Positions 29,001 to 59,907 of a stretch of 64,000 bases of DNA are shown in pieces. Source of the DNA: Desulfobacterales bacterium. GTDB lineage: Bacteria > Desulfobacterota > Desulfobacteria > Desulfobacterales > Desulfococcaceae. How positions within the stretch are numbered: the stretch's first letter is position 1; each line of letters begins with the position of its first letter. The notes under the pieces are model-generated. The model searched no databases. It saw nothing but the letters and a program-made list of their open reading frames with translations, and was not told the DNA's origin. A program made the position numbers and the translations under genes. The stretch is taken from NCBI GenBank assembly GCA_041390465.1, contig JAWKPW010000001.1, positions 26,225-90,224 of the forward strand, given 5' to 3'.

Positions 29001-29021
29001 AGAATTTAACTTATACCAATT

Positions 29022-29150
29022 CTCTGCTGAAACCATACGCTGCGGAAGGCAAAGCCGGTTCTCCGCAAATTTTGACAGTGCTGTCTTTTTTTGTGTCCTT
29101 TGCGGTAAAAAAAAGCATGGTTTCAAAGGAGAATCGGTATTATAAGCGGT
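29022..29150. repeat. Copies of dispersed intergenic repeat modules A (reverse orientation) and B
   Basis: 29022-29068 is the reverse complement of the module 'GCGGAGAA(C/T)CGGCTTTGCCTTC..GTATGGTTTCA(A/G)CAGAG' seen at 57887-57949. 29112-29149 'AAGCATGGTTTCAAAGGAGAATCGGTATTATAAGCGG' recurs at 45467, 59875 and 57921. Confidence 0.7.
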
Positions 29151-29241
29151 TGCTTAATATAAAAACTGACGTGATCATGCAGTACTGCAAAAATCGTCAG
29201 AGGGCAAAAAGGGGAGATATGCTGCCTGCTTCATCGCAGCA

Positions 29242-30042
29242 TCAGGCAAGCTTTCTGCTTTCATTCGCGCGGGTATATTTGTCGTGGAGCAAAATCAAAT
29301 CGTTTGCATTGTCACTTCCAACGGTTGCAGCATATCGGCAAACACTGTAATTTTTTGATTTTTCCCAATATCCCCTTTCCCATGACGCGATTTCCTCTTT
29401 GAACTGTGCATCTGCGGGAACTTTTATTTTTATGGTTCTGTACTTTATTCTGTAAGGCTTGGGGGTCAATCGCGCGCGGTAGCAATTCTGTTTTTTGCAC
29501 AAGTGCCAGTACAGGGGATCTGCATTCAGTTTCCGGCTTATCCTGTCTGCAAGCGCTTCTTTCGGCACAATGGCCTGACCGGTAACGATTACCCGGAAGC
29601 CTTTGCAGGTCTGATAAATGCGAAAGCCCAGCGATGGCTGGCCAAGGCTGATGTGCAGTTTTTCTGTGACCTTTTTCAGCTTCTTCAGTTTCCATTCTGC
29701 TGATCTTCTGGCAAAAAGATCAAAAAATGACACGGGCGGCTCATCCACATCCAGTATCATCTGCTTTTCTGTGTTCAGCACATGCGCGCCATAGCGGTTC
29801 CTTGTTATGACCGCAGATTCATCAATTTCCTCAATCAGCTCCTCCCTGATTTCCGCTTCGTAACTTTCAAATTCATTTTTATGTCCGCTGATTCGGCGCT
29901 GGACAGATTCAAATTTTCGGATGGCAGTGTTTCTCGCGTCCTCTTCGGAGCTGTTGGAACCACCCAGAAAAGCGGCTTTTCTTTCCACACCGTCAACAAG
30001 GAGAAAGCCTTCAAATTTTGCCCAGTATCTGAATGTTTTCAT
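29242..30042 (-). CDS. Hypothetical protein (267 aa, basic C-terminal half), isolated between repeat-rich non-coding stretches
   Basis: ORF from 'MKTFRYWAKFEG'. No confident family assignment. One H-x-S-x element ('LHISLG') is noted but is not enough to call a 2H phosphoesterase. Confidence 0.5.
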   Translation of the reverse strand: MKTFRYWAKFEGFLLVDGVERKAAFLGGSNSSEEDARNTAIRKFESVQRRISGHKNEFESYEAEIREELIEEIDESAVITRNRYGAHVLNTEKQMILDVDEPPVSFFDLFARRSAEWKLKKLKKVTEKLHISLGQPSLGFRIYQTCKGFRVIVTGQAIVPKEALADRISRKLNADPLYWHLCKKQNCYRARLTPKPYRIKYRTIKIKVPADAQFKEEIASWERGYWEKSKNYSVCRYAATVGSDNANDLILLHDKYTRANESRKLA

Positions 30043-30289
30043 ATCATCTCTTTCATTGGCCGCCTGAGAGTCAGCAGATTCCATCCTCTGCCTGCGGCAG
30101 TAACGTGATTGCCGCAGAGGCATGCTCCCGCCCCTGCTTCTTCAGTACTCACCTGTTTGCCAAAGTCCGTCAGATTCGCAGGCTTTCTTTGCCGGAGTGC
30201 CTGCGTTCAATCTTTGCCGGGAGAAAAGGACTGTCTGCCGGCTGAGTCTGCCGATTTCCCTTTTCCGATTTTCTTTTGCAGAAAAAATG

Positions 30290-30318
30290 TTGATAACGCG
30301 GATATTTTTCTGTACAAT
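30290..30318 (+). promoter_or_regulatory. Strong sigma-70-like promoter (-35 TTGATA, 17 bp, -10 TACAAT) with no annotated gene immediately downstream
   Basis: TTGATA 30290-30295, 17-nt spacer, TACAAT 30313-30318. The nearest convincing coding start on this strand is about 380 nt downstream (30705). Confidence 0.4.
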
Positions 30319-30704
30319 GCCATATGATTCCCAGCGTTTTTTTCATTGATTCCGTTGTGCTCTTTGAAAGAATATCGGGAATGAGCACAACCCTCTGTCG
30401 CAGATTGTGTATCTGTTGCAAAGCAGCATGCAGGGGGAAAAATATTTTCCGGCTTTCCGGAAATGAAAAATTGTGCCGCAGATATTCTGATAAAATGTTC
30501 CAAAAAAATGACAGCATCTTCTGCCGGTTTTTTTTCTGTATTTTTGAGACAATTGCTGTATAATTATGACAGAGAATCAGTATTGCAGAGAAGGAACCCT
30601 TTTCAAAAATCCGGACTTGCAACGGATGAGGGGGAGCGGTTCGCTGTCTGAGCAGAATTTTGAAAACAGGATAACAGCAACTTCAGCAATTCAGGGAGAA
30701 AAAA

Positions 30705-30902
30705 ATGAAAAACACTGTAATGTACAGCGGACTTGCTTTGCCATTGCCCATGTTCTGGTTCCCGATGGCTTTTTTCTGGCCTCTGCGCTATGCGGAAGCC
30801 CTGATGGACAGTCTGTGGCCCAGAGATGTCTCCATGCGGAATTCGCCGGATCGGGGCTATCACTGCCATGACGGGAGCGGAAGTGAGTACTGGCTGTGGT
30901 AA
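30705..30902 (+). CDS. Possible small hydrophobic protein (65 aa)
   Basis: Good RBS 'GGGAGAAAAAAATG'. Sequence 'MKNTVMYSGLALPLPMFWFPMAFFWPLRY...' has one aromatic-rich hydrophobic helix. No homology inferable. Confidence 0.3.
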   Translation: MKNTVMYSGLALPLPMFWFPMAFFWPLRYAEALMDSLWPRDVSMRNSPDRGYHCHDGSGSEYWLW

Positions 30903-31000
30903 CTGCCTGCCGCTCATCGTTAAAACACGCGGAGAAAATTTGTGCATACCAAGGTTCGGTGTCAGGAAGTCCATGCCTCCCTGACCCCTGAAATCCTGTT

Positions 31001-33001
31001 TCACGGATTCTTCTGGCCAGGCTTTTCATCCTGCCCCAGCAGTTTGTTGATATTGAAAAAATTCAGCATGTCCATGGTATTGTGATACCGGATCGGGCCT
31101 GTGCCATCTCCTTTTCCTCCTCCAAAAAGAGTTTCCAGGGGAAGCAGTTTTGCACCCTGCATCACTTCAGCCAGTTTGGAGGCCACAATATACTGCGCGC
31201 CTGCACCGCTCCAGGCATCCACCATGGCTTTCTGTCCTCTGGCCTCGGCCAGGAGTTTGGCCTCAATGCCTTCCGCTCCCTTCTGCGCGGCATACAGCAC
31301 GGCATCAGCGTCAATTTTTTTCTTGGCCGCATCCCCTTCGGCCTCAAATTTCTTTTGGGCCATGAGAATCTCGGCCTCATCCCTTTTCTGTTCTGCCGCG
31401 ATCACGGCCTGTATCTTGATGGTCTCCGCCTTGACCTTTTCTGATTCAAACACAACCAGTTGCTTTTGACGGGAAAGTTCCGCGTTGGCTTTCTGGGTGT
31501 TCTGCTCCTGTTTGTACTGATCTTCCAGTTTGAACGCGATGACTTTCTGGGTGATGGGGCTGCGCAGTTCGGCAGGCACCTCAAAATGCCGCACCAGGGT
31601 CTGGTTGATGATGATTCTGCTTTCTTCGCATTCCTTCTTTATGGCATTGTGCAGATCTGTCTGAAATTTTTCACGGGTCAGACCGTGAATGAATTCCTCT
31701 CCCTTGTTTTTGGAACCGATGATCCGGGCAAAGGCCCGCGCGGAAGGCCGGATCTTTTTGTCCCGCACCGTATTGATATCCCGTCCCACTGTGGCCACAA
31801 TCATGGGGGCATTCTCGGCTTTCACATGATATACAAGTGTCAGGTCAAACTGGATCATGAAACCGTCATCCGAAAGAAAATGAATGGCGTCATCCCCGGC
31901 AGTGTCTCCCTCATTCTGCACCTGGGTCATTTCATAACGCTGTTCCCGTGTGTCAAACGCAATGACTTCATACTCAAACGGATTGACATAATACATGCCG
32001 GGCGGCAGGGTTTCCTCCAGAATGCCGCGTTCCCCCGGTTTTGCCAGCAGTTGTGAGGCGGATTTGGCTTTGCCGGTTTTGGCAACCTGCACCCCCACAG
32101 AACCGTCCGGCACAATCACAGCAGGGACAACCTTCACCTCTTTGTCGTAAGGGTTGATATAATACATGCCGGGCTGCATCACTTCCCGCTGAATGCCCTG
32201 AAATTCGTCATCCCGGCTGACCAGAATGGTCCCGGCCGGGGGCACCTTTCCCACCTTTTTTGTGACAATGCCCACCTGTCCTTTTTCGATGATCGTGGCC
32301 GACACCTGTTCCACCTTCACGGCCAATGGGTTGAAATAATAGGTTCCGGGCGGAATGATTTCCTGCTGGATGCCGCGGTAACTGCTGTCTCTGGGAACCA
32401 GCACCATATTATCCGGCGGCTGATCCCCGGTTTTCCGTATGACCACCCCGATTTTGCCTTCGGGAATCACCACAGCCGGATATTTTGTGACTTTCAGATA
32501 TTTCGGGTTGATGGGATGGAGACCCGGTTTCAGCACTTCGCGGCGGGGACCTTTTCCGCCCATATGAAATACCTCTTTGTCATCAATGACATCTTCATCC
32601 GCAAGGATTTGACCGGGCGGCATGGGGGTTCCGTCCAGAGCCTCCACCAGTCCGATCTGCTGGGATTCTATGGATATCATGGGTTCCTCCGTGATATCAT
32701 ATTTCCAGAGGCATTCCGCGAGCCAGAAAAAATGTCTTCCGGGCAGCAGCACTTCCCGCCAGTACCCCTTTTCCCCCTTTTCCACAATGAAGCGGCCTTC
32801 CACAGCAGGGGTTCTGCCAAATTTGGAAAAAACCACCCCCACATGGCCCGGATCAATGGAAAACATGACTGCCGAGAGGAAAACATAACCTGTCAGAAGA
32901 AAGACAATAGCAAAAACAACCGGTTTCATGGTGAAAAAACTGCCAATGCCTTTGATGGCGCGTTTTTTCACTTCATCTGTTATGACACTTTTCTCTGTCA
33001 T
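31001..33001 (-). CDS. Flotillin/SPFH (band-7) family protein with N-terminal tandem repeat modules
   Basis: 666 aa from the second Met (RBS AAAGGAGGAG). One TM. Five ~45-60-aa repeats each containing 'PG(M/T)YY(V/I/F)NP'-type SPFH N-terminal hairpins, then an SPFH core and a flotillin-type Ala/Glu/Lys-rich coiled coil ('AEAEGDAAKKK...'). Confidence 0.85.
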   Translation of the reverse strand: MTEKSVITDEVKKRAIKGIGSFFTMKPVVFAIVFLLTGYVFLSAVMFSIDPGHVGVVFSKFGRTPAVEGRFIVEKGEKGYWREVLLPGRHFFWLAECLWKYDITEEPMISIESQQIGLVEALDGTPMPPGQILADEDVIDDKEVFHMGGKGPRREVLKPGLHPINPKYLKVTKYPAVVIPEGKIGVVIRKTGDQPPDNMVLVPRDSSYRGIQQEIIPPGTYYFNPLAVKVEQVSATIIEKGQVGIVTKKVGKVPPAGTILVSRDDEFQGIQREVMQPGMYYINPYDKEVKVVPAVIVPDGSVGVQVAKTGKAKSASQLLAKPGERGILEETLPPGMYYVNPFEYEVIAFDTREQRYEMTQVQNEGDTAGDDAIHFLSDDGFMIQFDLTLVYHVKAENAPMIVATVGRDINTVRDKKIRPSARAFARIIGSKNKGEEFIHGLTREKFQTDLHNAIKKECEESRIIINQTLVRHFEVPAELRSPITQKVIAFKLEDQYKQEQNTQKANAELSRQKQLVVFESEKVKAETIKIQAVIAAEQKRDEAEILMAQKKFEAEGDAAKKKIDADAVLYAAQKGAEGIEAKLLAEARGQKAMVDAWSGAGAQYIVASKLAEVMQGAKLLPLETLFGGGKGDGTGPIRYHNTMDMLNFFNINKLLGQDEKPGQKNP

Positions 33002-33510
33002 GGGCTCCTCCTTTCTTGCATGGGTTGGGGGCAGGGGCGGCGGTTCTGTTTGCAGCGGTTCCTTTTCTGTCATGCATACGCACTTTCTGTCATCAGTTTC
33101 AGGCAGGTTTCAGCACATATTCCCCTTTCTGCGGCATAAGGTTTATCTGACTGACATCATTCCTGAATTTTTCAAAGAGAGCAGAAGGCGTTCACAGAGG
33201 TGGCAGAGTTTTTTCTGTGATCTCTGTGGAAACACTGTCTGCACCGGGATACTGTGTGCTGCAACTGCTTTTTTTCTGCAGACAGACAGGCTCGGCAGGC
33301 AGGATGCTGCCCAAAGATTTTTTTCCCGGCAGCTTCGCTTTTTTGAGTTGCTTTGTCTGTAGGCATATATTACAGATAGAAAAGCTGCAGCGTCAACAGA
33401 AAAGAATTCCGGAGGGAAATATCCGCCGAATGCGGGATATTTCTTTCAATATTTTGAAGTTATAATTTTAAAAACTGAAAAGCAGGTTTTGGTCTTTGGG
33501 GAAGACAGTT

Positions 33511-34374
33511 ATGAAACATGAGACAGTGGGAGATGTTTATTTTGTCTGCCATGAACTTCGTTCATGCGGAGATACGGAAATATTTGACCGGATTGGGCCG
33601 GGAGCCATTTATGAGGTGATCAAGCTCATTGAGGGCATTCCGCTTTTTTTTGAGGCCCACATGGACAGGCTGAAACGCTCTGCCGACCTTGCCGGGGAGC
33701 GTGTGGAAAAAAATGAGGCAGAGATATGGGATGAAATACATACTCTGGTGGAAAAAAACCGGAAAGAGCATATCAATGTCAAACTGATCTGCTGCCGGGA
33801 AAAGAAAGGGGAACTTTTTCTCACCTATTTCATCCGCTCTGAATATCCGGGGCCGGACGTGTATGCAAAGGGAATCCGGACAGTCCTTTACGGCGGGGAA
33901 CGGGAAATGCCCAATATCAAAACCCTCAGAGACTCTTTTCGGGCCAGGGTTGAGGGAATGCGGGAAAAAACCGGGGCATATGAGGCGCTGCTGGTGGATC
34001 AGAACGGATATGTCACGGAAGGGAGCCGATCAAACATTTTTTTTGTGAAGCAGGGGGAAATCTTCACGCCTCCGGCCGGAACTGTCCTGCTGGGTGTGAC
34101 ACGTCAGCACGTGGTGAAAATCTGCAAAAGCCTGGGGCTGAATTTCCGTGAACATCCCCTGCACAGATCAGAACTTGGGAAAATTGACGGGGCCTTTATC
34201 ACAGGGACCACGGTGGATGTGCTCCCGGTTTCCCATGTGGATGAGATTTCCCTTTCCTCAGTTTCCCATCCGCTTGTCCAAAAAATTGTTGAGGCATTTG
34301 CAAAGGAGATCAGCTCGTATATCAGGGAAAGGAAAACGCGGCGGGAATCCGGAACCTCCGGAGGCAGCCGCTGA
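33511..34374 (+). CDS. Class IV (D-amino acid / branched-chain / aminodeoxychorismate lyase-type) aminotransferase
   Basis: 287 aa. 'EGSRSNIFFVKQGEIFTPP...GVTR' fold-type IV signature. Confidence 0.8.
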   Translation: MKHETVGDVYFVCHELRSCGDTEIFDRIGPGAIYEVIKLIEGIPLFFEAHMDRLKRSADLAGERVEKNEAEIWDEIHTLVEKNRKEHINVKLICCREKKGELFLTYFIRSEYPGPDVYAKGIRTVLYGGEREMPNIKTLRDSFRARVEGMREKTGAYEALLVDQNGYVTEGSRSNIFFVKQGEIFTPPAGTVLLGVTRQHVVKICKSLGLNFREHPLHRSELGKIDGAFITGTTVDVLPVSHVDEISLSSVSHPLVQKIVEAFAKEISSYIRERKTRRESGTSGGSR

Positions 34375-34513
34375 CCGGGTGCGGGGAGCGAAATGCGGGA
34401 GGGGAGAGCCGGAATCATTTTTTTGTTTGCCATAATGTTTAAAAAAATATAAACAGTATACATTTTGAAATTTGGTTCAGACTTCCGGTTTCGGGAGCAG
34501 CGGGAGCCTCCAA

Positions 34514-35425
34514 ATGAATAAACATTCTGAAGACGGAAAGACATTCCGAATCTTTTTTCCGATAGTGCTGCTGGGCGGCATACTGCTGAGCGGATGCAGT
34601 CCCGGTCCGTATCTGTCAGGTCAGTTGCTCAGCCGCAGCGTGATGCAGGGGGATTTTCCCCGTTCCGTGGCAGTGCTTCCCTTCCGGGATCTGACCGGAA
34701 CCGAGGGGATTGCCCCACTGGTGCGGGTCAGTTTTTACAATCATCTGAGTTCCCTGCCTTACCGGGACGTGGAACTGCAGATGGTGGATCTGCGGCTCCG
34801 GGAAAAGCGGCTGGAGAGCCACAATGCCATTGCAGAGGTATCGGTAAAGGAACTGGGGAAAATACTGGGATGTGATGCAGTGGTTTTCGGAACTGTGTAT
34901 GAGTTTCAGCGAATTTTCGCCGGCTTTTACTCCTCCATGAATGTGGGCGCATCGATAAACATCTGGGATACCCGGACCGGAAACAAAATCTGGAGTGACC
35001 GTTATACGGCACGGAGTCACGAAGGAGGAATTCCCATCACCCTGCTCGATATTCCCCTGATCACGGTCCGCTCCGGACTGAACCTGACCGATGAGGTGAA
35101 ACTGCAGGCTGTCGAAGAACTGAGCCGGTACCTGAGCAGCAACATTCCCAGACCCGGGGTTTTCCGTATCAGCCGGCACCGCCCGATGGCATATGAGCTG
35201 CAGGCCGGAGCCTTTTTTGAGCCGGAACGGGCAGCCCGTTTTCAGGAAGCCCTGCAGGTCAGGGGCTTTCCGGCTTTCATCCGCAGAAACACCGATGCGC
35301 GGGGGGAACTCTGGCACCGGGTTTTTGTGGGCCCCTATCCGGACAGGGATCAGGCCCTTCAGGTTAAAAAAGAGGTGGATCATGCCTTTGGGGCAGACTG
35401 CTTCATTTCCCGGCAGAGCTCCTGA
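34514..35425 (+). CDS. Lipoprotein with LpoB/CsgG-like N-terminal domain and C-terminal SPOR (septal peptidoglycan-binding) domain
   Basis: Signal plus lipobox 'LLSGCS'. 'AVLPFRDLTG...' N-domain pattern. C-terminal 'YELQAGAFFEPERAARFQEALQVRGFPAFIRRN...WHRVFVGPY' SPOR fold pattern. Confidence 0.7.
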   Translation: MNKHSEDGKTFRIFFPIVLLGGILLSGCSPGPYLSGQLLSRSVMQGDFPRSVAVLPFRDLTGTEGIAPLVRVSFYNHLSSLPYRDVELQMVDLRLREKRLESHNAIAEVSVKELGKILGCDAVVFGTVYEFQRIFAGFYSSMNVGASINIWDTRTGNKIWSDRYTARSHEGGIPITLLDIPLITVRSGLNLTDEVKLQAVEELSRYLSSNIPRPGVFRISRHRPMAYELQAGAFFEPERAARFQEALQVRGFPAFIRRNTDARGELWHRVFVGPYPDRDQALQVKKEVDHAFGADCFISRQSS

Positions 35426-35515
35426 AAACAGACAGGGGAAAGCGGATGCCCTTCGGGGCTGCCAGCAGGAACCTGCGTTGACTTTCCTTAAACACACGGA
35501 TAAGATAACATTATT

Positions 35516-37522: not shown

Positions 37523-37628
37523 ATCCGGAGAACAGCGCACAGTCCGCAGCAGAAATCAGGCGGTGAGGGCAATCAGGAAAACATGGGGAGACTGTTTGGG
37601 ATATCACGGTTCACTGACAGAGGAACAC

Positions 37629-39398: not shown

Positions 39399-39652
39399 CG
39401 AACAATATTTATGATGTTATTGACTTTTTCTGATTTCTGTGGAATGAATAAACAGACGTATTGTCATACTGCCGGCACAAAGGGCTCCTTTTTGTTTTTT
39501 TGTGCATAATCATCTTGGGTGATTTCCGGAAAGGAACATTCCCCGGATTTGACAGCTTTTCCATATGTTGTCAAATCTTTCAGGTGACTGAACCGGGACA
39601 TTCATTTTCAGAACGCACCTGAACAACAGCAAATTTTTTGGGAGATTCAAAA

Positions 39653-40153: not shown

Positions 40154-40174
40154 TCTGAAAACTGGCAGTATCTT

Positions 40175-40528: not shown

Positions 40529-40609
40529 TTCAGGCCCCGGCTGCGGAACCTTGCGTTTTTTTTGCTTCCCGGCATACCTGAATCCGGAATTCCTTACATG
40601 GCATAAACG

Positions 40610-40963: not shown

Positions 40964-40964
40964 T

Positions 40965-41405: not shown

Positions 41406-41407
41406 AG

Positions 41408-42724
41408 GTGGACAATCTCACGGCTCCCCGGTATGTGCGTTTTGATGACAATCTCTGCACAGCCTGCTGTGACTGTGTGCGGATATGTCCCACCCATGCG
41501 CTGCGCATACGGAAAGGCCGGCCGGTTCTCATGCCTGATCAGTGCATTGGGTGCGGGGAATGCATCCGAATCTGTTCCGCGGGCGCTGTGTCCGCATCCA
41601 CCTGTGAACTGAAACCCTTTGCTGATGATCAGATTTCTGTTGCCATGGTTTCTCCGGTTCTCTATTCCCAGTTTCCCGGAGTTCCGCCTGAAACTGTGCT
41701 GCAGGGCATCCGGCGGCTGGGATTTACGCATACGGTGGATATGTCCTATTTTCTGGAAATGTTCCAGTTTGCCACTGAAGACTTCATCCGGCGCAACCGC
41801 AAAGAGGAAAAGGCCCCCTGGCCGCTCATTTCTCCGATCTGTCCGGTGGTGGTGCGGCTGATTGCCTATAAATATCCAAGCCTTCTTTCCCATGTCCTTC
41901 CGGTTTCCAGACCCGTTACCCTCATGGCCGGAGAAATCAACCGTCTGCTTACGCAGCGGTATGAAACAGCCCGGCATCCCTTTCATCTCTATTATATTGT
42001 TCCCTGTCCCACAAAAATGGAACCCAGCCGGGTGTCTTTTCTCAAAAACCGTTCCTATGCGGTCAGGGCTCTGGGCTTCAATGATATTTTCGGGGAACTG
42101 ACCCGGGAAATCCAGAAAGGAGGACAGCCCCCCCTTCCCCCCGATCTTTTTGACAGTTACGGAGCCACCGTAAGCAGTCTGATCTGGGGAATCTCCGGAG
42201 GGGAGATCGCGGATCTCCAGATTGATCACACCCTGGCTGTTTCCGGTCTGAAGGAAACCATGTCCTATCTGGAAAAAATTGAAATGGGAATGTTCCGGGA
42301 CATGGAATACATTGAATTCAGAACCTGCCGCGAGGGATGCGTGGGCGGCATTCTGACAGCCATTGACCGGTATCTGGCCAAAAGGGATGTGCAGAAAACC
42401 ATTCTTCAGAACGGCATTGAAAGACGGGTTTCCCGCAGTGAGTTTCTGCGTTTTTATCAGGAAGGCTGTTTTGTCAAAAAGGCCAGTCCAGCGGCCATGC
42501 GACAGATTTTCGGAATTCACCGGGAACCCCTGTCTTTGGAAAAAATGGCGGAAATCTACACCATCATGAGCCATATCAGGGGAAAAAACTGTGCTGCCTG
42601 CGGCGCACCGGACTGCCGGACCTTTGCCGAGGATGTGGTCAGGGGAAAGGCTTCTTTGGAAGACTGTCTGGAACTGCGCGCGCGCGGGGAAAAATTTTCC
42701 CCTCCTTCTGCTGACGCACTCTGA
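41408..42724 (+). CDS. Putative sensory [FeFe]-hydrogenase-like protein (HydS-like): 2x[4Fe-4S] ferredoxin domain, divergent H-cluster domain, C-terminal Cx2Cx4Cx16C motif
   Basis: GTG start with RBS AAAGGAGGA. N-terminal 'CTACCDCVRICP...CIGCGECIRIC'. H-domain motifs degenerate relative to catalytic HydA: L1 'SPICPVV' (single Cys instead of TSCCP), L2 'VPCPTKME', L3 'EFRTCREGCVGG'. C-terminus 'CAACGAPDCRTFAEDVVRGKASLEDC' = Cx2Cx4Cx16C. Confidence 0.7.
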   Translation: MDNLTAPRYVRFDDNLCTACCDCVRICPTHALRIRKGRPVLMPDQCIGCGECIRICSAGAVSASTCELKPFADDQISVAMVSPVLYSQFPGVPPETVLQGIRRLGFTHTVDMSYFLEMFQFATEDFIRRNRKEEKAPWPLISPICPVVVRLIAYKYPSLLSHVLPVSRPVTLMAGEINRLLTQRYETARHPFHLYYIVPCPTKMEPSRVSFLKNRSYAVRALGFNDIFGELTREIQKGGQPPLPPDLFDSYGATVSSLIWGISGGEIADLQIDHTLAVSGLKETMSYLEKIEMGMFRDMEYIEFRTCREGCVGGILTAIDRYLAKRDVQKTILQNGIERRVSRSEFLRFYQEGCFVKKASPAAMRQIFGIHREPLSLEKMAEIYTIMSHIRGKNCAACGAPDCRTFAEDVVRGKASLEDCLELRARGEKFSPPSADAL

Positions 42725-42787
42725 AAAAACGGCAGATATGAAACGCATTCTCACCTGCGGAAACTCTTCAGGAGAACAGAATCAGCA

Positions 42788-43207
42788 ATGAGCCCTTCTT
42801 TAAATCACAGTTATCTTTGCAAACGAATCATTGTGGAGATGGAACGGTCAGGAAAATGGGAAGCATGGCCGGAGCTTACTCTGGATATTGAGGGCGGGCT
42901 TGTGCCGGATATAGCGATCTATGAAAGCGGTGTGCTGAAACCGGATTTCAGACAGGACAGAATCCGGTGTGAAACTCTTCCTTTGGCAGTTGTGGAAATT
43001 GTGTCCCCCGGTCAGTCCATACATGATCTGATGATCAAAGCGGACAAATTTATCCGCGCGGGAATTCCCGCAGTCTGGACAGTGGAACCTTACGGCGCTG
43101 TCATCTATGTTTCCGAAAAAGAAGAAAGAAGGATCGTTGTGGCAGATGTGGTGAAAACCGGGGATATTGAACTGGATTTTTCAAAAATCTTCCCCCGGAG
43201 GCAATGA
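42788..43207 (+). CDS. Uma2-family (DUF820) putative endonuclease
   Basis: 139 aa. 'PDIAIYE...VVEIVSPGQ...' PD-(D/E)xK-like Uma2 pattern. Alternative start at 42836. Confidence 0.6.
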   Translation: MSPSLNHSYLCKRIIVEMERSGKWEAWPELTLDIEGGLVPDIAIYESGVLKPDFRQDRIRCETLPLAVVEIVSPGQSIHDLMIKADKFIRAGIPAVWTVEPYGAVIYVSEKEERRIVVADVVKTGDIELDFSKIFPRRQ

Positions 43208-43230
43208 CCGGAAGCAGTCATCTGATGCGT

Positions 43231-45228: not shown

Positions 45229-45411
45229 TGCCAGCCGCCATTAAAACCATGCTTTTGAAAAAAACAGTTTTCTGCAATCAGACAGAAAAAAGTGACGGCA
45301 TTGCACAGGGTCAATGGGGAGTTGCATCACACACAGATCATGGGACAAAACATGGGCCGGATAATCTCATACCGATTCACCGTTGATTTTATGCCGCAGG
45401 TGCTCGTCAGT

Positions 45412-45501
45412 TTTTTTGTGACCTTTGTGCCCTCTCTGTGTCTCGGCGGTAAAACAAACCTGACAGAAAGCATGGTTTCAATGGGGAATCGGTATTATAT
45501 C
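45412..45501. repeat. Dispersed intergenic repeat: module C (TGTGACCTTTGTGCCCTCT) plus module B (AAGCATGGTTTCAA-GGGAATCGGTATTAT)
   Basis: Near-identical C+B arrangement recurs at 59822-59907. Module C occurs in reverse at 57835-57866 and 46130-46168/46320-46375. Confidence 0.7.
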
Positions 45502-46067
45502 CCCAATTCCTCTGCGATTTCAGACATGGCTGCCAGACTCAGGTTTACAAATTCATTCAGGGGAAGGCCGATTTTCTCGCATTCCATGATCCGCTCCCGG
45601 CTTACGGCTCTGGCAAAATGCGGGGTTTTCATCCGCTTGGTAACGGATTTGGTCTGAACACTTGCAATTTTTTTGTCCGGATATACGAGGAGCCGTGGCC
45701 ACAATCAGGCCGAGATGCTTCCTGCGCAGGTAAGCGCATGCCCGTGTAAGTGTGGTGCTGTCCTTCCAGCCCCAGCCCTTCGGCATTGTGCTTGCGAATC
45801 GCGTTGAGGATTTCCGGGCAGATGCCTTTTTCCTCCAGCAGTTTTGCGCCCACCTCGCCGTGCTGTGCGGAATCCTCGCCCGTAATTTCATAATCAATGT
45901 CATGGAGCAGACCCGAAAGTCCCCATATGTCCGGATTTTCTCCAAAATGCCCGGCCAGTTTTCGCATAATGGCCTCGGAAGCCAGACATGTGCCACCAGT
46001 CTTTCGTTTTTCAGATGTTCTTCAGCAGCTTTCAGAGATCCTCCCGGTTGATTCGATGTGCGCTCAT
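45495..46067 (-). pseudogene. HD-domain (HDIG/YqeK-like) phosphohydrolase gene disrupted by at least three frameshifts
   Basis: The reading frame must switch at least three times to follow 'MSAHRINREDL | KAAEEHLKNERLVAHV | LASEAIMRKLAGHFGENPDIWGLSGLLHDIDYEITG...HNAEGLGLEG | ...VTKRMKTPHFARAVSRERIMECEKIGLPLNEF'. The 'LLHDIDY' HD motif is intact. Confidence 0.6.
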
Positions 46068-46129
46068 GAAGAATCTTGCTGTTTTATGTTTTTTTAACGT
46101 ATTGTTTTATGAAGTTTATTCTGATGGAT

Positions 46130-46460
46130 TTTAACCACAAAGGGCACAAAAAAACTGTATCCGTCAGTTTTATTTGACAAAGCAGCAGTGCTTTGTCAAC
46201 TTTGATTTTATGTGCCGAAGTGCAGAAAAAAACCGGATTTTTTGAAAAAATCCGGTTTTTTCAGCTCACAGATTCAGGACTGACAAAACAGCAGTGCTTT
46301 GTCAAATTTTTTCTCACGGATTTCAACCACAAAGGGCACAAACACGGCACAAAGGGCACAAAAAACTGTATCCGTCAGTTCTTTTTGACAAAGCAGCAGA
46401 TCAACAGAACTTTTCAGAAAAAACCGGATTTTTTGAAATAATCCGGTTTTTCTGTTCATC
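46130..46460. repeat. Composite repeat region: two copies of module C (reverse) plus 'TTGACAAAGCAGCAGTGCTTTGTCAA' palindromes and two copies of a 35-bp perfect AT-flanked palindrome
   Basis: 46130-46168 and 46320-46375 share 'AACCACAAAGGGCACAAA..ACTGTATCCGTCAG'. Palindromes at 46174-46199 and 46278-46310. 'AAAAAACCGGATTTTTTGAAA(A/T)AATCCGGTTTTT' at 46225-46260 and 46417-46452. Confidence 0.7.
46417..46452 (-). terminator. Probable carA terminator (perfect palindrome AAAAAACCGGATTTTTT / AAAAAATCCGGTTTTT)
   Basis: About 40 nt downstream of the carA stop; T-tract follows on the minus strand. Confidence 0.5.
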
Positions 46461-46492
46461 CCAACACATAAAATCAAAGTTTGCGGAAAACC

Positions 46493-47647: not shown

Positions 47648-47890
47648 AATATTTTAATGCCTCTTTTCAGTTTTCAGTTGTCAGTCAATGCCGTTTCTTT
47701 AAGAAAATTATGGAGTGCCGAACTGAAAGTTTGGCAGTTTTTCCCCAATTGTTTCATCTCCCAAACTTTCAGTTTGGGACTCCCCCACCCTTAAAAAAAA
47801 CATCATTGAGTTGTCAGTTATCAGTGAGTTCCGTATCTGTTTTCCTGACATCTGAACACTGACACCTGTTCACTGATAACTGATAACTGT

Positions 47891-48256: not shown

Positions 48257-48440
48257 GTGCGGATAACCTTTGCCTGTTTTACTGTCTCACTTTGCGCACA
48301 GCGGTCATTCCGGCAAAAGCCGGTATCCAGCGCATCCTGATTTCACTGGATTCCGACTTATGCCGGAATGACGGTGAAGGAATATAATTTTTTGATTTAT
48401 TTAAAATTTGTATAAAATGAGTTACTGTATGTCCCAAATT

Positions 48441-49082: not shown

Positions 49083-49085
49083 GGT

Positions 49086-52059: not shown

Positions 52060-52216
52060 CTTTTCTCCTTTCCGGATATGATGTTAAGGACAGTGTTGTG
52101 CCAAGTTTGACTTTGTGATTTCATCTGTGCACAATAATCTGATTTGTTTGGGAAGAATCAGATTGTTTTTTGCAGATCGAAGATTCAAAACTGACAAAGC
52201 AGCGGGAATGAATATG

Positions 52217-52249
52217 AAAAAACCAGGTTTGACAGCACCTGGTTTTTTT
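52217..52249. terminator. Bidirectional rho-independent terminator (AAAAAACCAGGT-TTGACAGC-ACCTGGTTTTTTT) after ilvE
   Basis: 8-bp GC-containing stem flanked by an A-run and a T-run, 8 nt downstream of the ilvE stop. Confidence 0.6.
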
Positions 52250-52256
52250 GATTCCA

Positions 52257-53321: not shown

Positions 53322-53588
53322 GAAAGAATCTCCTCCTTGCTGTTTCACATCGAAATTTTTTGCATTGGCTTCTTTCCGATTTCTGTGTCCGTCCGTTTGC
53401 AGGTGTCCGGCTGCAGGGGCATCCTTTCCACATTATCGGCAACGAAAAACTATAGCAGGTTTATTTCTGAAATCAAGTATTATGTGCAAAGGTTCCGGGC
53501 ATGAGATGATGGAAAGTATGATTTTTTTCCGATGCCGGAAAGATTTTGGGACAGATTGCTTTTGGCACAGCCTCAGACAGATGCGGCT

Positions 53589-54458
53589 TCATTTCCCCTG
53601 CAGTGTGACAAGAAGGGTTCCGGCAAACATGAGAACCGCACCGCTGAGACGGAAACTTGTGTTCTCCTCCTTAAACAGGAAACGGCCATACAGAACACTG
53701 ATGACCACGCTGAGACGTTTGACGGAAATCATGTACGCGGCCTGAACCAGGGAAATGGCCCAGCCGTGAAACAGGCCGTGCAGAAAGAGCAGAACCCCTG
53801 CTGCCAGACCTTTTGCTGCATCGTTCCGGAATGCTGTCAGCCGGATTCTTCCGCTCATGCGGAAAAACAGAATCATGAGAAGGTTGAAGACCATGTAGAA
53901 GAGCATGGTAAAAAACAGGGGAGAGGAATTCAGAATGGCTTTTTTGCCGATGACCGAGGTGAGACTGTAAACAAATGCAACAAAGAGCATGATTCGCGAT
54001 CCTTTTTCCCGGAAAAGCGACTGCAGGGGCGCAAGGAGATGCCAATGACCGGGATCGATATGGAGAACATATCCGCCCGCGCAGATGAGCACAATGCCGC
54101 AAAAGCCTCCGATGCCCGGAATTTCATCCAGAAACAGATAGCCGCTCAGCACCACAAAAACCGGTGTGAAAGCCAGACAGGGAATGGCCAGAGAAAGAGG
54201 CGATATTTTTATGGCCTTCATATATAAAACAAAGGTGAAACCATTGAGGGGAATGCTGATGAGAAAACTCCACAGAAAATCCGGGCCGATGGGGGGTACC
54301 GGAACCAGAAGGGCGCTCAGGGTGAAAAGCGGGAGACTGTACATCAGGGGATAAACAGACATCTCGACAGGCGAGAGACCGGAAAAGAATTTCCTGATGC
54401 ACGCGTCCTGGGAGGAAACCGCCACTGCTGTGAGCAGGGACAAAATCAGCCATTGCAT
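53589..54458 (-). CDS. EamA-family (DMT superfamily) transporter
   Basis: 289 aa, 10 predicted TM helices in two EamA repeats. Confidence 0.75.
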   Translation of the reverse strand: MQWLILSLLTAVAVSSQDACIRKFFSGLSPVEMSVYPLMYSLPLFTLSALLVPVPPIGPDFLWSFLISIPLNGFTFVLYMKAIKISPLSLAIPCLAFTPVFVVLSGYLFLDEIPGIGGFCGIVLICAGGYVLHIDPGHWHLLAPLQSLFREKGSRIMLFVAFVYSLTSVIGKKAILNSSPLFFTMLFYMVFNLLMILFFRMSGRIRLTAFRNDAAKGLAAGVLLFLHGLFHGWAISLVQAAYMISVKRLSVVISVLYGRFLFKEENTSFRLSGAVLMFAGTLLVTLQGK

Positions 54459-54654
54459 GGAAAGAGATTTCTCAGGGGCATATCAGAAAATTCCCGCAGT
54501 CCGGTCCGGCTCCGATCGGCATGACGATCCGGCACCATATCAGGCCGTAACAGAAAATCTGAAAAATAACAGCACATGGATACTTCCCGAAACTTTGTGT
54601 TTTTGCCTCGTCGCTGCAGACCAATGCATAAACATGTTGAATTTTGCAAAATCA

Positions 54655-54687
54655 AAAACTGAATTTTTTCAAAAAATTCAGTTTTTT
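54655..54687. terminator. Perfect AT-flanked palindrome (AAAAACTGAATTTTTT C AAAAAATTCAGTTTTT)
   Basis: Same architecture as the 46225/46417/55688 palindromes; lies in the divergent intergenic region between the EamA and NUDIX genes. Confidence 0.35.
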
Positions 54688-55107
54688 CATTCCCTGTTTC
54701 ATCCTGTAAAAACTGAATTGGTCAGGTACTGAAAGCAGCCGGAATGCGAAATTGGTTTTGCTGAAATCTTTTTCAGATTTCATGTTATTTCTCCAAAAAG
54801 ACGGTCGCAGCATACCGGGTTCCCCCTGTGCTGCCTGCACAGAAATTTTGCAATGCGTAACATGTATGCAGAAAGATGTCAAGATTGGCCGGAGGCATGG
54901 GACAGGATTTGCACACTGTCTTGAATTTGCTTTTTTTTCACAGTTCCCTTTCAGAAAACCTGCCGGAGCCGCGTCCGGATCACCTCATGGGGCAGTGTTT
55001 TCCCAATACGGTACAAAGGCCGGAGGAAAAAAGCTGCTTTCTTTTGCACAGACCTTGTGGTAAAAGTCCGGCAGAAAACACAACAGGATTGCTTCAGGGA
55101 GAAGAAA

Positions 55108-55656
55108 ATGTCTGTCATCGTAAACCGCAGTGAGGAAATTTATAGGGGGCGGGTTTTTCACATGATCCGGGAGAACATCACCCTTGACAATGGTGTAAGC
55201 GTGAACATTGACACCATCCGGCACCCCGGCGCATCGGCCATTGTGCCTGTGCAGAGCAATGGAAATCTGATTCTCATCCGCCAGTACCGGCATTCGGTCC
55301 GAGGATATATCTGGGAAATTCCTGCTGGAACCCTGGGCCCGGGTGAGGAGCCCCTGGCATGTGCAAAAAGAGAACTCATTGAAGAAACCGGATTTTCCGC
55401 ACAAACCTGGGAAAAACTGGGGGAAATCGTTCCGGTTCCCGGTTATTCGGACGAGCGGATTCATATCTTCAAAGCCCAAGACCTGATCCCGGCTGTGCAG
55501 AACATGGACGAGGATGAGGTGCTGGACGTGCATGAAATCCCCCCGGGGCAGGTGCTGCGCATGGCCGGTGAGGGGGAAATTCAGGACAGCAAAAGCCTTT
55601 CTGCCCTGTTTCTGCTGCTGGCAAGGATGAACCGTATTGCCCAAGGTGATTTCTGA
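55108..55656 (+). CDS. NUDIX hydrolase (ADP-ribose pyrophosphatase-like)
   Basis: 182 aa. Nudix box 'GTLGPGEEPLACAKRELIEETGF'. RBS GGGAGAAG. Confidence 0.85.
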   Translation: MSVIVNRSEEIYRGRVFHMIRENITLDNGVSVNIDTIRHPGASAIVPVQSNGNLILIRQYRHSVRGYIWEIPAGTLGPGEEPLACAKRELIEETGFSAQTWEKLGEIVPVPGYSDERIHIFKAQDLIPAVQNMDEDEVLDVHEIPPGQVLRMAGEGEIQDSKSLSALFLLLARMNRIAQGDF

Positions 55657-55687
55657 AAATGAATATTCCTGTTCAGCCATCTGAAAG

Positions 55688-55716
55688 ATTTGACAATTTT
55701 TGAAAAATTGTCAAAT
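55688..55716. terminator. Convergent bidirectional terminator / perfect palindrome ATTTGACAATTTTT-GA-AAAATTGTCAAAT
   Basis: 14-bp perfect arms between the NUDIX gene (+) and the AI-2E transporter gene (-). Confidence 0.45.
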
Positions 55717-55744
55717 CCGGGGGATGTTCTTTTCCGGAAATCGC

Positions 55745-56842
55745 CTAACCGCTTTGCTTTGTTTTTCTGTCTTCTTCGGCAGACTGCCCCGATGCCTTCT
55801 GCCATGCCTTGATGACCGCATGGAAGAGTGTGGCAAGGGGAATGGCAAAGAAAAGACCCCACAGTCCCCAGAGACCGCCAAAGAGAAGCACAGCCACGAT
55901 AATGGCCACCGGATGGATATTCACCACACCGGACAGCAGCAGGGGAACGAGCAGATTGCCGTCCAAAGCCTGAATGATGGAAATGGCAATCATCACATAG
56001 GCAAACTGCGCGCCCCATCCCCATTCAAAAAACGCGATCAGTCCCACAGGCAGAAACATGACGGTCGCGCCGATATAGGGAATCAGCACCGACAGTCCCA
56101 CAAAAAAGGACAGGAGCATGGCAAAGGGGACAGAAAGCAGCGCAAAAGTGACATAGGTGACTGCCCAGACAATGATGATTTCCCATATCTTTCCCCGGAC
56201 ATAATTTCCAATCTGCAGATTGACCTCCTGCCAGACCTCGGTTGTCAGGCTGCGATCCGAAGGCAGAAAACTTTTGAACCAGTCCAGGATCAGTTTTTTG
56301 TCTTTGAGGAAAAAGAAAACCATGAGCGGAACCAGAATCGAATAGACCAGAAATGTGATGATTCCCCGTACCGAACTCAGGGAGATGGAAACAGCATACT
56401 GGCCCATACGGGTAAGTTCTGTGGTAAGATAGCCCATAATCTGACGGATTTGAGCTTTCGAGATGAATTCCGGATAGCGTTCCGGAAGGAGCATCAGTTC
56501 TTTCTGGCCTTTGGACACCATGGCAGGCAGATCCTGCAGCAACTCGACAATCTGCCGCGACAGCATGGGGAGCAGCCAGATAATCATAATCAGAACAGAG
56601 GTCAGGAAGAGAATGAATACCAGCAGCACGGCGGCCAGCCGCGGCATCTTCTGTTTTTCCAGATAGATTACCGTGCCTTCCAGCAGATAGGCAATGATAA
56701 TGCTGATAAACACCGGGGTCAGCATATCCCCCAGCGTGAAGATCAGGATAAAACCCGCAAGAAGCAGAAAAGCGAGGATCACGACCTGGGGATCGGAAAA
56801 ATAACGTCTGAACCATGTCCGGAAAATGTCAATCATAGACAA
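55745..56842 (-). CDS. AI-2E family transporter (PerM/YhhT-like, UPF0118)
   Basis: 365 aa, 8 TM helices with the family topology. Confidence 0.8.
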   Translation of the reverse strand: MSMIDIFRTWFRRYFSDPQVVILAFLLLAGFILIFTLGDMLTPVFISIIIAYLLEGTVIYLEKQKMPRLAAVLLVFILFLTSVLIMIIWLLPMLSRQIVELLQDLPAMVSKGQKELMLLPERYPEFISKAQIRQIMGYLTTELTRMGQYAVSISLSSVRGIITFLVYSILVPLMVFFFLKDKKLILDWFKSFLPSDRSLTTEVWQEVNLQIGNYVRGKIWEIIIVWAVTYVTFALLSVPFAMLLSFFVGLSVLIPYIGATVMFLPVGLIAFFEWGWGAQFAYVMIAISIIQALDGNLLVPLLLSGVVNIHPVAIIVAVLLFGGLWGLWGLFFAIPLATLFHAVIKAWQKASGQSAEEDRKTKQSG

Positions 56843-56882
56843 CTCTCTTAAAAACAGGAGATTTCATTCACCACTTATGCTC

Positions 56883-57626
56883 TCAGTCGCCCTTCATGGG
56901 AAAGAAAACATGCCGCATCCACCCAAGAAGCGTATTTCCCTCCAGCACTTCCCTGTCCCAGCGGTCAAATTCTCCGGACAGTTTCACCGGATCAGAGAGC
57001 CACTGGGATCGTTTGACCATTTTTTCATTGGGATCAAGCTGTTTTACCACACGAGCGGGATTTCCGGCTGCCACACTGTCGGCCGGAACGGATTTTGTCA
57101 CCACAGAACCTGCACCGACAATGCTGTTGTCTCCGATTTCCACGCCTTTGCACACAATGGCCTGATCCCCGATCCAGACATTTTCTCCAATGTGCACCGG
57201 TTCCGCTGTTCCCATGGAAACCCGGTTGTAAATGCCGTGCCAGTCCGAATCTGTGATATAGGCTCCGCTGGCAATCATGCAGTTGTCACCGATGCGGACT
57301 TCCCTTGCCGCGCCAATGCGCACACCCGGACAGATCAGGCAGTAGTTTCCCACCCGGATAACACCGCTCTCATTGAGTTCTGACCACACGGCAAAACGCA
57401 CCTTCCGATCCGGAGCAGCAATCACCGTGGCATAACTGCCCAGTTCCACAGAGGCCCCGAAAACCTCCACATGCCAAGGTTTCATAAACACAGCCCCTTT
57501 TCCCAGATGATCAAACTGGGGCCGAAGGAAATGGCGGACATAGAATTTTTCAAATTTCCGGTACAGTTTTTTCACAAAATAGGGCCGGTGATCTCTGCGC
57601 AAAATTCCTCCTGAAGCCTCAATCAC
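56883..57626 (-). CDS. Left-handed beta-helix (hexapeptide-repeat) acetyltransferase
   Basis: 247 aa. Repeated '[LIV]G.N..I' hexapeptides ('IGDNCMIASGAYITDSDWHGIY...IGENVWIGDQAIVCKGVEIGDNSIVGAGSVV'). Confidence 0.8.
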   Translation of the reverse strand: MIEASGGILRRDHRPYFVKKLYRKFEKFYVRHFLRPQFDHLGKGAVFMKPWHVEVFGASVELGSYATVIAAPDRKVRFAVWSELNESGVIRVGNYCLICPGVRIGAAREVRIGDNCMIASGAYITDSDWHGIYNRVSMGTAEPVHIGENVWIGDQAIVCKGVEIGDNSIVGAGSVVTKSVPADSVAAGNPARVVKQLDPNEKMVKRSQWLSDPVKLSGEFDRWDREVLEGNTLLGWMRHVFFPMKGD

Positions 57627-57787
57627 ATTTTTTACACTTTTTCTCAGAAAGGATTTGATATTTTCAAACCGCTGACTTTCATACCATCAGACATAATACC
57701 GAATCGCCATTGGTTTGATCCTGTCTCCAACGGTATAAGATTTTTGCAACTTTTGGAAAGTTGTCAAATCTGAGCAGAGCAGATCAA

Positions 57788-57950
57788 TGGAGAATCAGTA
57801 TCATACCGATTCTCCTTTGAAATTTTAACCATTAAGGACACAAAGAAGGCACAAAGGACACAAAAAACGGACAGCACCGTGCAACATCTGCGGAGAATCG
57901 GCTTTGCCTTCTGAAACGTATGGTTTCAACAGAGAATTGCTATAAGCAGT
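57788..57950. repeat. Composite dispersed repeat (B-like palindrome GGAGAATCAGTATCATACCGATTCTCC, module C reversed, module A)
   Basis: 57835-57866 'GGACACAAAGAAGGCACAAAGGACACAAAAAA' is the reverse complement of the TTTGTGTCCTTTGTGCC module. 57887-57949 matches 29022-29068 in reverse at ~85%. Confidence 0.65.
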
Positions 57951-58260
57951 CAGCCGGAAAAAGAGGTGTGAGACGGTATTTTTCTGGCTGGCTGAGTGAT
58001 TTTTTGGCCGCATAAGCATCTTAAATAATCACAAAAGATTATTCTGAGATTTGCAATTCATCCCACGAATCCGGGTATTCATCCTCTTTTCCGGTTATCT
58101 CAACAAAAACGCAGCCATACTCTGTTTTAATTTCCACCGTTCCCACTGATCCAGTTCCGTTTCCCCAAATCGCTTTGATAAAGAGAAAAACAATTTGTAA
58201 TCACTGTCAGAAAATCCCTGCTGAGCCATTATGGAAATCCTTTGCTGCAACGCTCCGTCA

Positions 58261-59366
58261 TCATTCCCCAATCCCGGTCTTTTTCCATGACCTGTGGCAG
58301 AAAAGCCGGCTGGCCGGTGTCAGGTCATAAATGGCATCTGCGGCCATCAGCACAACCGCATTGGTCCAGGCAATTCTGTCTTCGGGCCAGATGGTCATGT
58401 CCGGCCAGGTATAACCGCACCAGTAGGAACCGTCCTCATATTTCTTGTCACTGATCCAGTTGAAGACAATCTCAGCCTGTCCGGTTTTTCCCATTGCAGC
58501 CAATGCCAGGCAGAATTCCGAGCTTTCCGCGACCGTCACCCAGGGCCGGTCTGACACACACCGCACGCCATGAGAATTGATGACAAATTTTTTCCAGTAT
58601 CGGTCAATGCGCTTGTGCGCGGCTTCTCCGCTTATTGCTCCGGACAGCACCGGATAGAACCAGTCCATGGAATAACGGGATTTGGTCATATTGAACAGAT
58701 GGGGACAGCAGCGGATGGCATGTCCGAGCCGCTGAAGCGATTCTTCCCATTCGGGCCGTTCATATCCCAGTATCCGCTGTGGCCAGTCCGCATTTGAGAC
58801 TCAGATACACGGAACTTGATGCCGTGAGGCAGGGCCATGGGATCCGGTTTTCCTTCAGGACTCACCGCCCAGTGGATTTCCCCGGTTTTGGCCTGCAGAC
58901 CTGTGGCAAATCCCAGAGCAGCATCCACTGCGGGCCACATGTTTTTGAGAAATTTTTCATCTCTGTGAATCAGATAATAATGATACACGCCCACAGCAAT
59001 GTAGGCAGCCATATGGCTTTCACGGGTTCTGTTTTCCGGTTCTCCCTGCCGGTAGGCCGAATACCAACTGCCGTCCGGCAACTGGTTTTCTGCCAGCCAG
59101 GCAAATGCCCGTCCGGCTTCTGCTGCATATCCGCCAATGCTCAGCCCCATGGCAGATTCCACATGATCCCAGGGATCGGTTTTATCTCCCCGGAACCAGG
59201 GAATTTCTCCGCTTCTGTACTGCGTATCCGCAATCTGTCCCGCAACTGTCTCCACATCCAGCCCAGCATAACTGTGCTGCACACTTTCGCAAATATACTG
59301 CCTCATCTGCCGGATAGCACCTTTCTCAACTCGGTATGAATTTTCAGATTTCCTGTAAACTGCCAT
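58261..59366 (-). CDS. Alpha/alpha-toroid repeat protein (prenyltransferase / squalene-cyclase-like 'DGSW' repeats), single frameshift near 58785-58805
   Basis: ORFs 58686..59366 and 58261..58689 belong together. Reading the downstream ORF's frame upstream gives 'ADWPQRILGYERPEWEESLQRLGHAIRCCPHLFNMTKS...' until a stop, so the true shift is near 'GTATCTGAGTCTCAAATGCGGACTGG'. Repeats 'QLPDGSWYSAY' and 'YEDGSYWCGYTWPD'. Confidence 0.6.
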
Positions 59367-59821
59367 GTACCGCAGACAGGCGTGAACAGGCCGTTTCCGC
59401 TGCAGCTATGATCAAACTTTCATGGCAAATAAAAAACTGATTTCATACCGTGAAAAAAAAATATGTGCAAGAGAAAAACATCCGGATTTTCTTTTCTGCA
59501 TTTCTTTTCACCCCTGAAAATCCTTCCCCTCTCTTTAAAAGGCTGAAACCTCATGAAAAACCCGACAGCATTTCTCTCAGGGGAGACAGTTTTTCTGCAT
59601 CATCAGGGGGGAGATCCGCTGTTCCCAAAAAAACAGATTTGCAGGGAAAATCTCTTTTTCGCAACGCAGTAATATCCCGCGAAAAAACAGGCAAAAAATC
59701 AATATCCGGCCGGAAATGATTCCCTGTCATGCCAATTCGCCATTGAAAATATGCTTTATGAAAAGCAGTTTTTGCGGAAGACAATGCCGGTTTGCCGTCG
59801 ATTCTGCAAAGTCCTGTCAGT

Positions 59822-59907
59822 TTTCTGTGACCTTTGTGCCCTCTGTGTGTCCTTTGCGGGCAAGGGGTAATGGAAAGCATGGTTTTAAAGGCGAATCGGT
59901 ATTACGC
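59822..59907. repeat. Dispersed intergenic repeat, modules C+B (second copy of the 45412-45501 element)
   Basis: 'TGTGACCTTTGTGCCCTCTGTGTGTCC' and 'AAGCATGGTTTTAAAGGCGAATCGGTATTACGC'. Confidence 0.7.

Follow-up and report, generated by a model that had tools for sequence, protein, structure and literature searches.

What are the short repeats that recur between the genes of this 64-kb stretch of a Desulfobacterales chromosome (assembly GCA_041390465.1, contig JAWKPW010000001.1, positions 26,225 to 90,224; hereafter the window)? An earlier note, made from the sequence, described three modules, A, B and C, recurring in different combinations and orientations at 29022-29150, 45412-45501, 46130-46375, 57788-57950 and 59822-59907. 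We found the described sequences at all five loci, at these coordinates. The repeats are far above chance: in the 64-kb window the core of module B has 4 matches with at most 3 mismatches (0.00 expected), and TTTGTGNCCTTTG has 10 matches with at most 1 mismatch (0.69 expected), 9 of which lie inside the reported loci. The five loci are tied together by blastn-short at 87–100% identity, and full copies are 79–91% identical over aligned blocks, in line with the 80–95% given before. We conclude that the loci are probably copies of a family of miniature inverted-repeat transposable elements (MITEs), that is, of a non-autonomous DNA transposon.

Modules A and B turned out to be one box of ~30 nt, (GC/GT)ATGGTTTCAAnrGAGAATyGGTAT, present in opposite orientation, and are therefore terminal inverted repeats (TIRs). 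Module C is a run of TTTGTGnCC units directly inside the B end. An alignment of 29005-29150 with 57780-57952 (reverse-complemented) and with a copy in another genome (locus L009, below) shows the order of parts: A' TIR, a linker GCGGAAGGCAAAGCCG... with a small hairpin, a T-run, the TTTGTGnCC units, TTTGCGGTTAAAA and the B TIR. We call this the type-1 element; in the window it measures 127–174 nt. Its TTTGTGnCC units number two to four, and in complete copies their spacing is 9/11/9 nt. The alignment holds from end to end for these three full copies, and for five in alignment A1; both ends of the five full copies keep one consensus, and the conserved part of the element is the outer 16–30 nt at each end, (GC/GT)ATGGTTTCAAnGGAGAATyGGTAT. 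The idea of three independent modules being shuffled is thus replaced by a single A'-linker-C-B unit and its deletion variants.

We built a profile hidden Markov model (HMM; nhmmer) from the three aligned sequences and a position weight matrix (PWM) from the outer 16 nt (AATGGAGAATTGGTAT). The HMM recovers 4 full copies in the window, with E-values from 1.7e–49 to 1.7e–18, and also picks up C-only matches within 46129-46368. At 18 bits or more the PWM has 10 matches in the window, which form five inverted pairs 106–174 nt apart. The two loci read before as C+B pairs (45412-45501 and 59822-59907) do carry these sequences, but the HMM aligns both to the whole element, and they are therefore complete elements with decayed or partly deleted left ends; the PWM scan places these ends at 45369 and 59729, further left than the earlier limits. 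Folding predictions for six elements pair the ends as a long stem; z lies between –3.0 and –4.8 for five of them and is –1.7 for the other. The window thus holds 5 complete elements in 64 kb (four type-1 and one, called type-2, with another interior) plus relics:

29013..29140, plus strand: type-1 element W1, 128 nt; alignment, blastn-short, nhmmer (29008-29149, E = 5e–45), PWM and fold (ends pair, z = –4.0)
Parts of W1: A' TIR ~29013-29042; linker ~29043-29085; shortened C run 29086-29106; B TIR 29112-29140
45229..45336, minus strand: probable third decayed TIR-bounded element with ends ATGCAACTCCCCATTGAC and GCATGGTTTTAATGGCGGCTGGCAT; boundaries approximate
45369..45495, plus strand: type-1 element W2, 127 nt; HMM (45370-45499, E = 1.7e–18), PWM, fold and comparison with locus L013 of the closest relative
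46126..46481, minus strand: C-bearing relic upstream of an HD-domain gene (locus 3); blastn-short, HMM and comparison with L013
57696..57801, plus strand: type-2 element, 106 nt; PWM ends and fold (z = –3.9)
57803..57943, minus strand: type-1 element W4, 141 nt, inverted relative to W1; HMM (57951-57795, minus, E = 1.7e–49) and a 65-nt repeat at 88%
59729..59902, plus strand: type-1 element W5, 174 nt; HMM (59727-59909, E = 7.3e–30, HMM positions 8-166) and PWM
30568..30583, plus strand: possible solo or decayed end GACAGAGAATCAGTAT; weak (15.9 bits) and perhaps a chance match

Every one of the window elements is intergenic, both orientations are present, and the flanks of the copies share no similarity beyond the ends. 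The P-type ATPase gene and a 293-aa open reading frame (ORF) converge, and W1 lies between their 3' ends, with TTA on both sides. W2, whose linker carries an internal deletion, lies between the stop of the HD gene and the start of TgpA. Next to it, the decayed element matches the B box at 45236-45256 by blastn-short; its HMM matches are weak and it is otherwise read from the sequence. W5, in which the A' end is decayed and the linker carries an insertion, sits between a split ORF (58261-59366) and the TolC stop. W4 reads B'-C'-linker-A on the plus strand, has a 10-nt deletion in its B end and, together with the type-2 element, lies upstream of a hexapeptide-transferase gene. The type-2 element has the same 16-mer ends as type-1, an unrelated interior and a central palindrome TTGCAACTTTTGGAAAGTTGTCAA, and abuts W4 at 57803 through GGTA-TCA-TACC. 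This junction forms the palindrome GGAGAATCAGTA-TCA-TACCGATTCTCC; hence GGAGAATC...GATTCTCC (57788-57818), taken before for an internal palindrome of the repeats, marks where two elements meet. Locus 3 (46130-46375 in the earlier note) differs from the others in having C-type repeats alone, with neither A nor B ends recognisable. On its minus strand we found TTTGTGnCC runs at 46129-46157 and 46321-46368, a hairpin TTGACAAAGCAGCAGTGCTTTGTCAA and, twice, a terminator-like hairpin AAAAAACCGGATTTTTTGAAAAAATCCGGTTTTT; it appears to be an old, decayed relative of the element.

Are the elements present in one genome and absent at the same place in another? Locus L013 is syntenic with the window over 35.5–57.6 kb at 86–93% nucleotide identity. 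From HD stop to TgpA start it has 39 nt, versus 258 nt in the window (45238-45496), and the extra DNA of the window is W2 plus the decayed TIR-bounded piece at 45229..45336. L013 has a single copy of the C-bearing region that precedes the HD gene; there TTGAAA-17-TATAAA and then the HD start codon follow the C run. In the window this material is ~190 nt longer. A promoter role for this region is a conjecture. We also considered, and rejected, that a B-like box at 45250 had donated the TgpA start codon; its ATG is out of frame with the TgpA ORF (45228 downward), and the TgpA start of L013 (12022), ATGCCGGAAAAGGAG, is kept in the window at 45222-45220.

The elements are likewise dispersed between genomes. 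The earlier note held that modules confined to this region would indicate local duplication, and we found copies in other genomes. A scan for the exact pattern, with one genome per species, returned 10 loci, 3 of which are real (L002, L007 and L009); further contigs of relatives were reached through carA, TolC and ATPase homologues. In all, four related Desulfococcaceae/Desulfobacterales assemblies carry the element, or other interiors between the same 16-mer ends, at sites that are not orthologous:

L009, 5200-5335: full type-1 copy in a Desulfococcaceae metagenome-assembled genome (MAG), GCA_050180235.1, of another species
L007: A end, in the same MAG as L009, GCA_050180235.1
L002: C+B followed by a type-2-like element (1103-1228), in a Desulfobacterales MAG
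L014 11207-11344; L018 4862-4994, 20225-20622 and 21220-21334; L036 3924-4061: same ends with other interiors

The copy in L009 is 87–89% identical to the window copies. W1 and this copy both lie on contigs with ATPase genes, and we asked whether they are orthologues. The ATPase/TolC orthologues of that contig fall in the 21.7-kb locus L016, and the L009 copy is not within it; we rejected orthology with W1, and the copy is non-orthologous to any window copy. On the contigs of L002, L007, L009, L014, L016, L018 and L036 the copies adjoin unrelated genes. Solo ends also occur in relatives, one of them at the same position in L016 and L036. Taken together, TIR-bounded elements range from 106 to 398 nt. 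Outside these genomes, metagenome contigs gave 2 matches and viral contigs 13, all by chance, and blastn against plasmids gave no match. In ~42 kb of the cultured species Desulfonema ishimotonii and D. limicola no PWM match reached 14 bits, which is a weak negative.

The elements have no coding capacity. Reading frames opening at the ATG of the B box start MVSKENRYY, MVSMGNRYY and MVLKANRYY in different copies; their similarity stops at the repeat edge, and no ORF is conserved beyond the ends. Of the regulatory signals suggested for the elements, the Shine-Dalgarno-like AAGGAGA of module B was not supported: only 2 of the B/A ends have this sequence, the others reading AATGGGGA, AAAGGCGA or AACAGAGA, and no conserved ORF follows the ends. 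No promoter, terminator or Shine-Dalgarno signal is consistent across copies. A sigma-54 promoter in B fails on the distance from GG to GC, which is not 10 nt, and a sigma-70 promoter on its spacing (TTTCAA-14-TATAAG), which is too short in normal copies; we discarded both. DnaA boxes, CsrA GGA motifs and IHF sites in C or B were rejected from sequence reading only, as the variable base falls at a position that each requires to be fixed. Integron attC sites, with R''/R' GTTRRRY cores and a shared orientation in arrays behind cassette genes, do not fit ends that read TACCRATTC...GAATYGGTA and lie in both orientations between housekeeping genes.

The flanks of the elements bear on how they might have been inserted. 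We found T-N-A next to TACC...GGTA at 22 of 22 flanks (11 elements). The triplet is the same on both sides in 5 of the 11 elements, those with two free flanks, and the composite of type-2 and W4 is flanked TAA...TAA. Insertions are often found immediately next to the end of a copy already in place (GGTA-TCA-TACC). These flanks possibly reflect a 3-bp TNA duplication combined with a preference for inserting against resident ends.

All of this fits a MITE family: the elements are small (106–398 nt, below ~500 bp), non-coding, bounded by TIRs, dispersed, and polymorphic for presence and absence. A single transposase, encoded elsewhere in the genome, would recognise the ends and move any DNA between them in trans; the same ends on unrelated interiors are then expected. 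The C repeats may serve as accessory protein-binding sites, and insertion may have effects on neighbouring genes.

Several observations weigh against this reading. Domains found in the large ORFs of the window that were scanned are ordinary chromosomal ones and include no transposase; in the ~250 kb examined there is no autonomous insertion sequence (IS) with matching ends, and the only IS inspected, of IS630 type in L018/L020, was rejected as a partner, its TIRs being unrelated to the element ends. We found no full type-1 copy in ~49 kb of non-redundant DNA of the closest relative (ERZ17914329/GCA_964505535.1; loci L013, L018 and the non-overlapping part of L020), and copies in the source genome were counted within the window alone. 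The empty-site case concerns one site, where diverged intergenic flanks leave the exact insertion point beyond reconstruction. As to the flanks, the triplets differ in 6 of the 11 elements, all six having TCA on one side, and in 4 of these six the TCA side adjoins another end or end remnant; the rule of the free flank was framed after the data were seen. The flank data fit TA, TNA or no target duplication alike, and a duplication is not proven by them.

What else could have produced such repeats? Segmental duplication on a local scale, or debris of recombination restricted to this part of the chromosome, would account for the ~190-nt local duplication at locus 3 relative to L013 and for the position of W1 and W5 at 200–300 nt from synteny breakpoints. 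It is contradicted by the copies beside unrelated genes on contigs of other species, and the flanks of the window copies are dissimilar beyond the ends; we find it scarcely credible. Host repeats of the type of repetitive extragenic palindromes (REPs) and bacterial interspersed mosaic elements (BIMEs) are bound by host proteins or moved by a REP-associated tyrosine transposase (RAYT; Y1), and mosaics are built from them. The REP half of the earlier MITE/REP-like description is not supported by the structure of our elements, in contrast to the MITE half, which stands on their TIRs, small size, non-coding nature, dispersal and polymorphism. By inspection a single end has no evident self-complementarity, and the palindromes GGAGAATCGGTA-TCA-TACCGATTCTCC (window 57788-57818, L018 21203-21235, L002 1086-1118), which would favour a REP/BIME origin, are confined to places where one element meets another. 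The DNA flanking most ends is unrelated, what is conserved is the entire unit of 127–174 nt between inverted ends, the GTAG-type 5' tetranucleotide that is a feature of REPs is missing, and there is no Y1_Tnp gene in the gene tables of the loci examined. Even with the intergenic location in both orientations and the several other small repeat families of the same genome, which agree with it, a REP/BIME origin seems very unlikely to us.

The repeats might instead be a functional cassette spread by duplication, either the gene of a small or cis-regulatory RNA or a promoter with an array of transcription factor sites, C providing the sites and B the core promoter. Window and L013 alike have indeed kept the C run ahead of the HD gene, with TTGAAA-17-TATAAA after it in L013; four TTTGYG units are spaced 9/11/9 nt, and alternate units are therefore about two helical turns apart; the elements fold stably; and W4 carries TTAAAA-17-TATGAT directed at the hexapeptide-transferase gene. 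However, the orientation of the copies toward neighbouring genes is inconsistent, and in W1, W2 and W5 the B end faces the 3' end of a gene that is convergent or upstream. Shuffled sequences contain at least as many promoter-like and terminator-like sites. Rfam gave 0 matches at gathering thresholds over the whole window; permissive thresholds gave generic hairpin matches alone (miRNA precursor models), far below threshold. Moreover, very different interiors share the same ends; therefore the ends, not the cargo, are conserved. A cassette is for these reasons an unlikely explanation, and a family of MITEs remains the reading that we prefer.

A wider proposal builds on the MITE reading. Within one uncultured Desulfococcaceae clade, the shared 16–30-nt end could define a superfamily of short elements, each with a cis-acting cargo (an array of TTTGTGnCC units that bind a protein, a terminator hairpin working in both directions, or an operator-like TTGACA-N-TGTCAA palindrome) and moved by a transposase preferring resident ends (GGTA-TCA-TACC), with one cargo co-opted as the HD promoter region and copies marking the TolC/ATPase breakpoints. 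As a joint claim we regard this as unlikely; if it were true, the elements would be a mobile regulatory toolkit and a driver of rearrangement, not inert debris.

TolC and the P-type ATPase gene are 31 kb apart and convergent in the window, versus 1–4 kb apart on the same strand in relatives (L016, L018); synteny breaks at 28807 and 60200, where homology ends 200–300 nt from W1 and W5. The match of the HD-domain gene (45495-45988) to its L013 orthologue is spread over two frames. In the P-type ATPase it is the C-terminus (28595-28807) that lies in another frame, the protein having 798 aa versus 849 aa in relatives, and the ORF at 58261-59366, which has no Pfam match, is split in two. These three genes beside elements look disrupted and are either pseudogenes or assembly errors.

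Other repeats of the region deserve mention in their own right. A second MITE-like family has two copies in the window, at 39515-39620 (plus) and 55644-55748 (minus), of ~106 nt and 83–87% identity, with inverted ends GG(T/C)GATTTC(C/T)G(G/A)AAA and a central TTGACA-N13/14-TGTCAA palindrome. Both copies are missing from the orthologous sites of L013, which at ~2000-2100 has GGTGTCAGG-type tandem repeats where the window has this family. The bidirectional terminator-like hairpin AAAAAACCGGATTTTTTGAAAAAATCCGGTTTTT is found at 46227-46260 and 46418-46451, with a variant at 54653-54688, and a near-identical hairpin is the cargo of the TIR-bounded L018 4862-4994. A short repeat of REP-like appearance, GTCATTCCGGCAAAAGCCGGTATCCAG, forms an inverted pair at 48304-48372 and has a single copy at ~59938-59962, near W5. 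Simple tandem repeats of GTGAACAGTTATCAGT type occur around carA at L014 9340-9460 and 9905-9990, in the same intergenic spots. The IS630-family IS lies at L020 ~2668-3826 and also at L018 ~85-1240; its TIRs are ~GGACATTTTGTCAATTCG, and its frameshifted transposase has HTH_23/28/29/32 domains and the start of DDE_3.

Otherwise the window is ordinary chromosome, with genes for a P-type ATPase, TgpA, carA, a hexapeptide transferase, TolC, enolase, sensor kinases, a secretin and RNase II; no tRNA was found in it. A Uma2-family gene (putative restriction endonuclease-like; 42788-43207) lies in a ~510-nt segment (42710-43221) that is missing from L013. Six tandem 54-nt repeats (62937-63368) inside the gene for an SH3/AMIN-domain protein (62213-63568, minus) presumably encode an 18-residue repeat. 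Two adjacent hybrid sensor kinases, 14671-19065 (1464 aa) and 19120-25932 (2270 aa), are 73–80% identical in DNA over their C-terminal HisKA-HATPase-REC-Hpt parts; the second also has an N-terminal Ser/Thr kinase domain and AAA_16.

The main value of recognising the elements is in annotation: they account for indels between close relatives and for resemblances of intergenic DNA that would otherwise be puzzling. In MAGs of this Desulfococcaceae lineage, whose genomes are large and rich in repeats, the elements are probably also behind some of the contig breaks and local rearrangements. If a partner transposase were known, the series of shared ends with different cargo would be a tidy system for studying the acquisition and spread of terminators and operator-like sites by MITEs. 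A full-text literature search with the end sequences and for Desulfonema MITEs found nothing, and the family appears undescribed; MITEs as such are common.

How do the elements compare with known systems? Elements of the IS5 family (IS1031 type) and of PIF/Harbinger type, together with their MITEs, duplicate TNA, and IS630/Tc1-mariner MITEs duplicate TA. The T-N-A flanks described here are compatible with either duplication, which is a lead, not a test. Neither group is represented by a transposase bearing these ends in the DNA examined. REP/BIME sequences and the REPIN-RAYT systems of proteobacteria resemble our elements as short intergenic repeats in both orientations, sometimes in head-to-head clusters. 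However, the unit here is a TIR-bounded segment of 106–398 nt instead of a self-complementary 20–40-mer, and the gene tables examined contain no RAYT gene. The BOX elements of Streptococcus pneumoniae, boxA-boxB(n)-boxC, are superficially alike in having end modules able to pair with each other and, between them, a module of variable copy number, which is how the modules had looked at first sight. Here the middle unit is a 9-nt motif and not a 45-nt box, the terminal modules are one sequence in truly inverted orientation, and the two families have no similarity in sequence. Finally, the Correia elements (NEMIS) of Neisseria are MITEs with a proven TA duplication and an IHF site. They differ from our family in host lineage, which is unrelated, and in sequence, which shows no similarity; in our family, moreover, the interior carries a one-sided TTTGTGnCC run and the duplication, possibly of TNA, is unproven. 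In architecture our family nevertheless resembles the Correia elements: both families are non-coding and intergenic, ~100–155 bp long, with TIRs of ~26–30 nt and TATA in the ends, and both have long and short variants produced by internal deletion, a long hairpin and occasional promoter-like hexamers at the junctions.

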